From the NCBI RefSeq assembly GCF_030013205.1, contig NZ_CP122648.1: a stretch of DNA of 64,000 nucleotides; one strand, 5' to 3'. Every line of letters starts with the position of its first letter. The stretch's first letter is position 1. This document shows positions 17,501 through 20,500 of this stretch, in pieces. The position numbers are program-made. This DNA comes from Escherichia coli. Lineage in GTDB: Bacteria; Pseudomonadota; Gammaproteobacteria; Enterobacterales; Enterobacteriaceae.

Positions 17501-20500
17501 GATAAAAAAGCAGGCGGAAAATTAATTGTCTCAACGAATGCGCTGGAAGTGAGTGGTACAAACAGTAAAGGCCAATTTAGTATAAAAGATGGTGTGTCCA
17601 AAAATTATGAACTGGATGATGGTTCCGGGCTCATTGTTATGGAGGATACGCAGGCCATTGACACTATCCTTGATGAGCATGCCACTATGCAATCGCTGGG
17701 AAAGGATACTGGTACGAGAGTGCAGGCAAATGCGGTATATGATCTCGGTCGATCAGATCAGAATGGAAGTATAACGTATTCCTCTAAAGCCATCTCTGAA
17801 AATATGGTTATCAACAATGGCCGCGCTAATGTCTGGGCTGGCACGATGGTTAACGTTTCAGTCAGAGGGAATGATGGCATTCTTGAGGTCATGAAGCCGC
17901 AAATAAATTATGCACCCGCTATGTTGGTGGGTAGTGTCGTGGTTTCTGAGGGCGCTTCTTTAAGAACGCATGGTGCCGTGGATACCAGCAAAGCGGATGT
18001 TTCGCTCGAAAATAGCGCATGGACCATCATTGCCGATAACACTACGACGAACCAAAACACTCGCCTCAACTTAGCCAACCTTGCGATGTCCGGCGCAAAT
18101 GTGATTATGATGGCTGAGCCAGTGACTCGTTCATCAGTGACGGCAAGTGCGGAAAATTTCATTACGTTGACCACCAATACCCTGTCGGGAAACGGCAATT
18201 TTTATATGCGTACCGATATGGCTAATCATCAGAGCGATCAGCTCAACGTGACCGGTCAGGCAACAGGTGATTTCAAAATATTTGTGACGGACACAGGGGC
18301 CAGCCCGGCAGCAGGTGATAGCCTTACACTGGTAACAACGGGCGGCGGTGATGCTGCATTTACGTTGGGCAATGCCGGAGGCATTGTTGATATCGGTACG
18401 TATGAATATACCTTGCTGGATAATGGCAACCATAGCTGGAGTCTGGCAGAGAATCGCGCGCAAATTACCCCTTCAACCACTGATGTGCTGAACATGGCAG
18501 CAGCACAACCGCTGGTATTTGATGCAGAACTGTACACCGTGCGTGAGCGTCTTGGTAGCGTAAAAGGCGTTAGTTACGATACGGCGATGTGGAGTTCGGC
18601 AATTAACACCCGCAACAACGTGACCACTGATGCGGGAGCTGGCTTTGAGCAAACATTGACGGGCCTGACGCTCGGTATCGATAGCCGTTTCTCCCGTGAA
18701 GAAAGCAGCACAATTCGCGGCTTGTTCTTTGGTTACTCTCATTCTGATATTGGTTTTGATCGCGGCGGCAAAGGCAATGTCGATAGCTACACCCTGGGGG
18801 CTTATGCCGGTTGGGAGCATCAGAACGGTGCCTATGTTGATGGAGTGGTGAAAGTTGACCGTTTTGCCAACACCATCCATGGCAAGATGGGTAATGGGGC
18901 AACAGCGTTTGGCGATTACAATAGTAACGGCGCGGGTGCTCATGTCGAGAGCGGGTTCCGTTGGGTTGACGGATTGTGGAGTGTTAGACCCTATCTCGCC
19001 TTTACCGGCTTTACCACAGATGGTCAGGACTACACGTTATCAAATGGCATGCGCGCGGATGTGGGAAATACCCGCATATTACGCGCTGAAGCGGGAACGG
19101 CGGTAAGCTATCACATGGACCTGCAAAACGGTACGACGCTGGAACCCTGGCTGAAAGCCGCCGTACGTCAGGAATACGCCGATTCTAACCAGGTGAAAGT
19201 TAATGACGATGGCAAATTTAATAATGATGTGGCTGGAACCCGTGGCGTTTATCAGGCTGGGATAAGGTCATCGTTTACCCCGACGTTAAGCGGTCATTTG
19301 TCAGTCAGTTATGGCAATGGCGCAGGGGTAGAATCGCCGTGGAATTCTCAGGCGGGTGTGGTCTGGACGTTCTGATAACAGAAAATAAACAGGCCGTGAT
19401 GTGTCGCGGTCTGTTTATCGAATTAAATGCAGATATAAAAAAACCAACCTTTACGGTTGGTTTTTTTTGGGATTTTTGGTCGCACGAGAGTATTCAAAAC
19501 ACGCCAATAACCTCTTGATTTAATTGAAGTCGAAAATTTTAAGTCAAAAATCGTATAGCTTAACGTGTAGCTAAAAATGTTTGCTGCAAAAGTATACAAT
19601 TTTAACCGTTATGACTCCCTGTTATCCGTTATCAAGCTGGTGGATGATCATGGATAACCCGTTATGGGAATCCCCATATCGGCATCAGGCCCACCAGCGC
19701 GACGCATTTTTTTAATTTCGCGGGTGTAAAAATTTGACGGGGCGGGCGGTCCCATAAGCAATGGGGGGTAGGGATTTCGATCCCCCCTCCTGAATGCAAT
19801 TTTTCGTATGTGGCTGTGCGTCCACCAGCTACGCCGGAATGGGGTATTCCGTTTCAACGGAACAGGTATGACGAACATGATCGCACCTTCTCCCGAAAAC
19901 GGTGCGACCTCCATAGAGGAAATGCCTATTCAGATCCCCGGTGATTTTCACCATTCAGAATCTGGAGGGTGAGTTTTCCAGTTTTCCCCAATGGGGGATT
20001 CTGGAACAATCAACGGGTTAGCGATTAAGCTGGCGAGTAATTAAACTGCGAAAATTTCGTAGTTTGTGAATATATTCCGGCTTGCTGGTTAACAGTCCTC
20101 AGATGTGAGGGATGTAGCCAGCGCAATTTTGCGTCGTCGGATATATCAACAACTTAGCACAAAAATAAGTCAGGCAGATACAAACCTCAAATTTGAGGTT
20201 TGCTTGTTTATCAACGGGTAAGGATAATCATCTCCCCTTTAAAGCCCCTTCGAAGGGTTACCCGTAGGCTTAATGTAAGGCTTGGCTGTAGCCTTACCGA
20301 ACGCTCCGCTCACCGTCGCGGCCTGTCCGGTTTCTTCCACTGATACGGCCTCACATCATCCTGCTGGTGGCGTTCCTGTTGCAGCACAACGGAAACAGGC
20401 GCTGAACACCTGTTAATTTTGCTTGCAGGTTGTTTGATTCCGGCAATGCTGCGGATCATCTCCAGCATATCGGCTTCGGTGATGGTCATGATTTACACCT

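Follow-up and report, generated by a model that had tools for sequence, protein, structure and literature searches.

The packaging region of the phage satellite EcCICFT073 is a close described counterpart of the locus analyzed here. Its Rpp-cosB module (Fillol-Salom et al. 2019, PMC6739421) consists of a winged helix-turn-helix (HTH) terminase-like gene, intergenic short repeats, and a small gene. The accessible part of that study reports that RppA alone was enough to redirect packaging and raise the transfer of a cos1 plasmid and that, among the genes cloned from the region after ori, only rppA blocked lambda. We found the same layout in a 13.2-kb satellite of the phage-inducible chromosomal island (PICI) type, located at tRNA-Pro in a 64,000-nucleotide (nt) stretch of an Escherichia coli genome (RefSeq assembly GCF_030013205.1, contig NZ_CP122648.1; hereafter, the window). 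Here, the gene of a 175-amino-acid (aa) HTH protein is followed by seven TTGACAC repeats, where EcCICFT073 has three copies of ATGTCCGGTT, and then by the subject of this report, a 59-aa open reading frame (ORF) on the minus strand at positions 20310 to 20489. In what follows, L-numbers are labels of the compared island loci and P-numbers denote protein clusters.

We interpret the 59-aa ORF as a genuine, conserved, and already annotated shortened allele of the small gene that comes last in the packaging operons of enterobacterial satellites, and this allele as a translated relic under relaxed selection; we assign this interpretation a probability of roughly 0.55. The first-pass annotation had listed the ORF as unannotated. 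The frame itself is real, running on the minus strand from an ATG at 20489-20487 to a TGA at 20312-20310 with the product MTITEADMLEMIRSIAGIKQPASKINRCSAPVSVVLQQERHQQDDVRPYQWKKPDRPRR, but RefSeq already lists it as the hypothetical protein WP_016262941.1 in the porcine E. coli strain ETEC4079, whose chromosome, this locus included, is 100% identical to the window. The good Shine-Dalgarno (SD) sequence claimed for it is present in the minus-strand sequence 5′ of the ORF (CCTAAGGTGTAAATCATG): AGGTG at 20500-20496 is separated from the ATG by 6 nt and belongs to the array repeat motif TAAGRTTTNYTAAGGT. The array upstream is genuine and its nearest unit, TTGACACTTT at 20521-20530, lies 31 nt upstream of the ATG, in agreement with the claim that the ORF is directly downstream of the repeats. 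The island end, in contrast, is not where it had been placed, beside the ORF, since another 730 bp of island DNA, including a cos site, precede the att repeat at ~19551-19577. The length of 59 codons is uninformative, because 266 ORFs in the window reach at least 59 aa, 32 of these with an SD-like motif. It is conservation, and not length, that raises the ORF above chance.

The conservation check in related islands that the first-pass annotation proposed gave a positive result. A protein search retrieved 23 clusters in E. coli and Salmonella, mostly of 59 to 60 aa; some clusters have another C-terminus from residue 43 on, and in clusters P0022 and P0023 only the two ends are shared (24 residues at the start and 11 at the end), around an unrelated, longer middle part. 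In the alignment with the ~93-aa family described below, the invariant columns are E5, L9, R13, G17, and I18 near the N-terminus and Y49, W51, K52, K53, P54, R56, R58, and R59 near the C-terminus. All 20 distinct DNA sequences of the short allele, from genomes and metagenomes together, are open over 59, 60, or 63 codons, and so are all 15 complete metagenomic copies. Moreover, the ATG and an SD are kept in three unrelated upstream contexts, where the SD reads AAGGTG (behind the array), AGGAAA (behind an inserted gene of 193 aa), or GGAGG (in an island with the long form).

The ORF is a mosaic of two parts of a longer gene (the long form) and a segment foreign to it. The PHROG matches are split, with the N-terminus matching phrog_1561 (93 aa; 4.7e−6) and the C-terminus matching phrog_7271 (5.5e−4); phrog_1561 covers residues 3 to 34 of the ORF only (profile positions 1 to 30 of 93), which falls short of a full-length family match. 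In the nucleotide alignment, codons 1 to 19 (20433-20489, minus strand), encoding an N-terminal helix shared with the ~93-aa form (TEAxxLxxIRxxxGI), correspond to the 5′ end of the parent gene. The last 17 codons, from CGC CAC CAG to the stop (20310-20362, minus strand), correspond to its 3′ end, with the L020-type allele as the nearest relative, and encode the basic tail YQWKKPDRPRR, which is homologous to the long-form C-terminus. Between these, ~130 nt have been replaced in frame by ~52 to 69 nt (AACCTGCAAGCAAAATTAACAGGTGTTCAGCGCCTGTTTCCGTTGTGCTGCAACAGGAACGCCACCAGC). The replacement of the two-helix core, at codons ~20 to 43 (20363-20431, minus strand), contains a 9-bp hairpin and AACAGG/CCTGTT repeats, and it ends in a Chi octamer, GCTGGTGG, on the plus strand at 20363-20370. 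The same segment is found at 90 to 95% identity in L023 and L038, downstream of an intact long-form gene, where the corresponding frame lacks a start codon and is closed by stop codons immediately upstream. AlphaFold2 models show three helices for the long form (mean predicted local distance difference test [pLDDT] score 69, core 83 to 91) and one confident helix, with low confidence elsewhere, for the short form (pLDDT 72); helices 2 and 3 have been lost from the short allele.

The parent gene, of ~93 codons, is present as DNA in 1588 of 5426 complete E. coli genomes (about 29%), while the short form together with the array occurs in roughly 80 to 100 genomes. Wherever we examined its context, the long form came last in a satellite packaging operon. 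It starts 5 nt after terL in L042 and 13 nt after terL in EcCIEDL933, both of them capsid-forming islands, 11 nt after the annotated terS in L043, and 2 nt after the gene of a DUF1441 protein in L044; it also follows TerS in L041 and L045 and Rpp/DUF1441 in L003. In the islands of O157:H7 and PBP8, 256 nt separate it from the preceding terS, and a lambda-type cos lies within this spacer. In EcCICFT073, whose rppA was identified by a 5e−31 match to the RppC structure 6HLK, the distance to rppA is 280 nt, and the spacer consists of a lambda-type cosN and the three ATGTCCGGTT repeats. In the window, L009, and L020, the gene follows the 175-aa HTH gene and the TTGACAC array, and L020, a sibling island built identically to that of the window, has an intact form of 86 aa. 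Because the placement after a terminase-type gene is constant and the gap is often only 2 to 13 nt, we suggest that the family is co-expressed with packaging proteins.

Synteny by itself suggests a link between the family and packaging, and to that extent the first-pass proposal of a packaging accessory factor is a fair inference. An essential packaging role for the family is nonetheless unlikely, because in EcCICFT073 RppA alone sufficed and only rppA blocked lambda. The accessible text of a preprint on capsid-forming PICIs (cf-PICIs) states that mutation of a “hypothetical gene 1792” in the packaging module of EcCIEDL933 reduces transfer; this gene may be either the family member after terL or a 60-aa ORF between HNH and terS. 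The literature assigns no function to either the long or the short form. Searches of the 59-aa and 94-aa proteins against Pfam, NCBIfam, and PADLOC yielded nothing beyond a single match to BrxA (E = 0.026), which we take as chance. A phmmer search of the PDB gave no match, a Foldseek search of the AlphaFold2 models against PDB and BFVD gave none with E < 0.2, and when the short form, the long form, and the 175-aa protein served as tblastn queries, none had a credible match among 50,697 phage genomes. Hence, nothing points to the small regulator that had also been proposed: there is no known family, structural relative, or fold match, and the two-helix core is absent.

The substitution patterns of the two forms differ. 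Among ten long-form genes, the ratio of nonsynonymous to synonymous polymorphism (pN/pS) is 0.33 for the whole gene, 0.27 for the core, and 0.08 for the final 11 codons, and the long form is therefore a real protein-coding gene under purifying selection. In the short alleles, the tail is the only part with a purifying signal (pN/pS = 0.19, with pS = 0.62), and the N-terminus has a pN/pS of 0.67. Across the 20 versions, the numbers of synonymous and nonsynonymous alternative codons are 3 and 13 in the N-terminal part, 2 and 10 in the middle, and 9 and 11 in the tail; in our first sample, the counts for the middle were 0 and 6, respectively, although no other part of the ORF is as well conserved at the DNA level. 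From these counts, evolution appears almost neutral in the N-terminal part and in the middle.

Could the 59-aa product be a functional micro-protein, either a regulator or a packaging accessory, in which the N-terminal amphipathic helix and the basic tail are active and the core is dispensable? The uniformly open frame, the constraint on the tail, and the good SD kept in three contexts are what such a protein would predict, and the first two weigh against our interpretation because the mini-protein could still work. The allele has also spread across E. coli and Salmonella with many different cargos, and its tails (KPDRPRR, KPNKLRR, and KPKKPRR) are unlike those of any long form seen (KPERLRR), a difference that suggests constrained divergence of the short lineage. 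However, the missing core ranks second in constraint among the parts of the long form, the rest of the short allele outside the tail is near neutral, and frameshifted and cargo-truncated variants exist (P0014 to P0020). Many islands with the same array lack the ORF (roughly 4 of 10 array-bearing islands in spread samples, in which cargo begins at the array end), and the AlphaFold2 model has low confidence beyond one helix. The open frames carry limited weight, as only about 2 stops would be expected by chance among ~48 codon changes, making their absence weak evidence (P ~ 0.13), and the fact that part of the SD belongs to the array repeat motif counts against selection. We regard a functional micro-protein as unlikely.

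The tail alleles also bear on our interpretation in another way. They may be imports from long-form genes at the Chi site, in which case the frame would be preserved automatically and the purifying signal would be silent on translation at this locus. Likewise, the L023 and L038 copies could be remnants of the short allele and not the source of the inserted segment. Both possibilities weigh against the interpretation of the ORF as a translated relic.

If the frame is incidental, the sequence may instead be kept as DNA, serving as the proximal flank of an accessory-gene hot spot in which Chi acts as a recombination joint and the AACAGG/AACGG repeats may bind a recombination protein. The C-termini of homologues diverge exactly after Chi (ERHQ|), and the proximal boundary of the variable region falls, depending on the island, at window position 20258, 20314, 20361 (the Chi site), 20435, or 20519, with a distal flank that is centered on Chi as well. 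The excess of nonsynonymous changes in a middle segment that is otherwise the best-conserved DNA of the ORF, the conservation of that segment outside any frame in L023 and L038, and a 5-fold enrichment of Chi in the islands fit this explanation too. It leaves unexplained, however, why the ATG and SD are kept in unrelated upstream contexts, why the divergence of the tail is rich in synonymous changes, and why none of the 20 versions has a disrupted frame. In addition, the hairpin of the middle segment is no better than that of shuffled sequence (z = −0.83 for the sense and +0.80 for the antisense strand), which does not support a structured RNA. Overall, we consider selection on the DNA alone an unlikely account. 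An Rfam search of 19300-21000 gave sub-threshold chance matches only. The idea that the middle segment is an ancestral noncoding element, continuous in L023, was weakened once the left arm at the distal Chi proved to be a different one in most islands; L023 may be a recombinant.

Under our preferred interpretation, that of a translated relic, the normal gene encodes a ~93-aa three-helix protein with a highly conserved basic tail, just past the satellite packaging site. An in-frame replacement removed the central two-helix core and left the 19-codon N-terminal helix and the 17-codon tail, and the inserted, Chi-containing DNA lies at the proximal border of the 3′ accessory (defense-gene) hot spot. 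The short frame would be transcribed by read-through from the packaging operon, because our promoter scan found no sigma-70 promoter-like site on either strand of the array and there is no minus-strand terminator between the 175-aa gene and the ORF. Translation would start from its own SD and ATG, and the product would be a relic with little or no function left. For the parent protein, we consider a non-essential, auxiliary role most likely, either in packaging or in transfer of the satellite and perhaps exerted through the basic tail.

A broader role for the parent family can also be imagined. The family could represent a universal “leading-end” gene of cos-packaged satellites, whose product acts as an establishment or anti-nuclease factor and, together with the enrichment of Chi, shields incoming linear DNA from RecBCD, with the short allele retaining activity. 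In the EcCICFT073 and O157 islands, the long form starts 60 nt from cosN, on the cosQ side, and in lambda the cosQ-side end is injected first. We consider this scenario very unlikely.

Even more improbable, in our opinion, is that the ORF acts as a leader cistron for downstream accessory (defense) genes, its translation or its transcript serving their expression. In most islands the cargo is indeed co-oriented and close behind the ORF. Yet nothing coding follows the ORF in the window, the cargo is on the opposite strand in L005 and L013 to L015, and the long form ends the cargo-free islands EcCICFT073 and EcCIEDL933.

The array upstream of the ORF (20510-20782) is composed of seven TTGACAC(TTT) units, six direct and one inverted, interleaved with three TAAGxTTTxxTAAGG units. 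The window contains six exact matches to TTGACACTTT, all within 20521-20776. A blastn search of the array against phage genomes found nothing. We also considered the TTGACA of the repeats as −35 boxes and rejected this, as no usable −10 follows. The array always follows the 175-aa HTH gene (20783-21310, minus strand), whose product is called a MerR family or DNA-binding protein in some genomes. Its N-terminal HTH resembles the small-terminase/excisionase/MerR type (phrog_57, 5e−7; HTH_17 below the cut-off), and the likeness to the TerS/excisionase type is confined to this part. Comparisons of the protein with Rpp/DUF1441 gave no DUF1441 match in Pfam, no match to RppC in the PDB, and an E value of 0.5 in BLASTP against an island DUF1441 protein. 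The array and the HTH gene together occupy the same place as cos1/cosB and rppA in EcCICFT073 (island L049, 15095-15373), with the array in the position of cos/cosB, and the array is kept across E. coli and Salmonella, regardless of which replicase an island has. Because of this shared placement and its retention across replicases, we suggest that the array is the putative packaging-recognition site of a new Rpp/TerS-like protein without sequence similarity to Rpp.

The region 3′ of the ORF is a variable accessory hot spot. In sister islands, it carries mostly co-oriented genes for an RNA-binding-domain protein, DUF3800, GapS1, a methyltransferase with DUF262, Abi with SieB, or a Panacea-domain pair; in islands without the ORF, an AAA ATPase with DUF4435 follows the array. 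The distal flank of the hot spot (19616-19668) is an inverted repeat (GTTATCC.TGATCA / TGATAACGGATAAC) around a Chi site on the plus strand (19636-19643) and is common to islands with different cargo. The “cargo” of the window, between its two Chi sites, has no gene; it is a 0.7-kb segment with a cos site, and no credible reading frame was found in the 730 bp between the ORF and the island end. Noncoding stretches in this interval, at 20012-20135 and 20181-20202, are homologous, as reverse complements, to the DNA directly 3′ of the long-form gene in O157:H7 islands and contain the conserved hairpins CCTCACATCTGAGG, CTACGAAATTTTCGTAG, and CAAACCTCAAATTTGAGGTTTG.

The cos site (19709-19790, plus strand; core GACGGGGCGGGCGGTCCC at 19736-19753) is 87% identical to the annotated cos region of the Stx2e phage phiP27, with 45 nt, including the 10-nt cos, being identical, and by this identity with an annotated cos core it is of the phiP27/HK97 type; cos sites of the phiP27 type are HNH-dependent. 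The cos segment and the ORF occur together in nine genomes only, nearly all of them porcine, and islands at other att sites are without the phiP27-type segment. Correctly oriented Chi sites are found within ~110 nt on either side of cos, at 19636 (plus strand) and 19822 (minus strand). The DUF1441/Rpp-type island L003, which occupies the same tRNA-Pro site, has two lambda-type cos in opposite orientation and two phiP27-type cos-like sequences (15400-15950; 12050, 15100-15170), and it would thus appear to hold packaging sites for several helper types.

Across six PICI and cf-PICI islands (that of the window at 19551-32736, L002, L003, L004, L041, and L046/L047), the density of Chi (GCTGGTGG) is 1.23 per kb, compared with 0.26 per kb in the adjoining chromosome (~5-fold). 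The window island has 17 Chi sites where 3.4 are expected (Poisson P ~ 1e−7). A text search of the literature retrieved no paper reporting Chi enrichment in these islands.

By the PICI criteria of Fillol-Salom 2018 (PMC6092414), the host element has the expected features: an integrase, an AlpA-type regulator, a replication module in the conserved order, and a size within ~10 to 15 kb. It adjoins tRNA-Pro(GGG) (32854-32930), between yejM and yejO, and is bounded by 26-nt att direct repeats (CGTATAGCTnAACGTGTAGCTAAAAA) that lie 13.2 kb apart, the distal copy at ~19551-19577 and its partner at ~32710-32736, adjoining the integrase gene (31403-32644) and tRNA-Pro. An att site in the 3′ end of tRNA-Pro was rejected, because no repeat was found there; the repeat is located between int and the tRNA. 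On the minus strand, the order of genes is integrase, AlpA-type HTH regulator, Icd-like, DUF4222, RepA helicase, ProQ/FinO, PerC, NUDIX, DUF2213 protease-like protein, 205-aa protein, 679-aa protein, and 175-aa HTH protein, followed by the array and the 59-aa ORF. The island is without capsid, tail, or lysis genes, yet it carries the DUF2213 protein and the 679-aa lytic transglycosylase-domain protein.

These two proteins belong to a three-gene module upstream of the HTH gene (21362-24763), made up of the DUF2213/head-maturation-protease-like protein, the 205-aa protein (phrog_11810), and the 679-aa protein, which matches phrog_7694 over its full length and has its lytic transglycosylase domain at the C-terminus. 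The module is unusual content for a PICI and is common to Salmonella islands (L010 and L020). The att arms (32660-32736 and 19600-19668) differ in their short repeats: five GTAGCTA units lie beside int, and ATAACGG/ATAACAGG units accompany the inverted repeat around Chi on the distal arm. These repeats may serve the integrase or an excision factor as arm-type binding sites.

The 59-aa ORF itself is of minor importance, being a catalogued hypothetical protein that looks like a decaying allele, but moderate interest attaches to the parent family and to the architecture of the hot spot. The ORF points to a family that is found in almost a third of complete E. coli genomes without an assigned function and that invariably comes last in at least four satellite packaging modules that otherwise differ, among them those of the two best-studied models, EcCICFT073 and EcCIEDL933. 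The locus also illustrates the construction of a 3′ defense hot spot, in which variable cargo is flanked proximally by DNA in or next to this gene and distally by a Chi-centered inverted repeat. In pig enterotoxigenic and Shiga toxin-producing E. coli, the hot spot carries an Stx2e-phage-type cos, which suggests which phages may mobilize the window island.

Compared with known systems, the locus combines familiar layout with divergent parts. The EcCICFT073 module has the lambda-type cosN described above, whereas no such site lies beside the array of the window, and the 175-aa protein, predicted to bind the array, has no detectable similarity to Rpp/DUF1441 or RppC. In phiP27, cos lies between the genes of HNH and a P27-family TerS, followed by TerL; the island has none of these three genes of its own, the flanks of its cos core differ from those of phiP27, and the site is predicted from sequence identity. 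Relative to the ~93-aa family (PHROG 1561), represented by WP_000133413.1, locus tag C_RS07030, after rppA in EcCICFT073 and by WP_000133425.1, locus tag EDL933_RS08745, after terL in EcCIEDL933, the 59-aa ORF has lost the central ~50 residues (AENYARVVAEVMRRDGIELNGVDMRxIRxRVLELLAYRRR), with 24 unrelated codons in their place, and selection on it is relaxed. It nevertheless aligns with the family in the N-terminal helix and in the basic tail YxWKKPxRxRR, and it keeps the family's position as the last core gene, just past the packaging site and before the 3′ accessory region. Immune systems are known at the 3′ end of PICIs, according to the accessible part of PMC11364771 (citing Fillol-Salom 2022). 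With respect to this anti-phage hot spot of PICIs and to the cos-proximal hot spot of P4-like satellites (PMC9122126), the 59-aa ORF is located at the proximal border of a region of the same kind.

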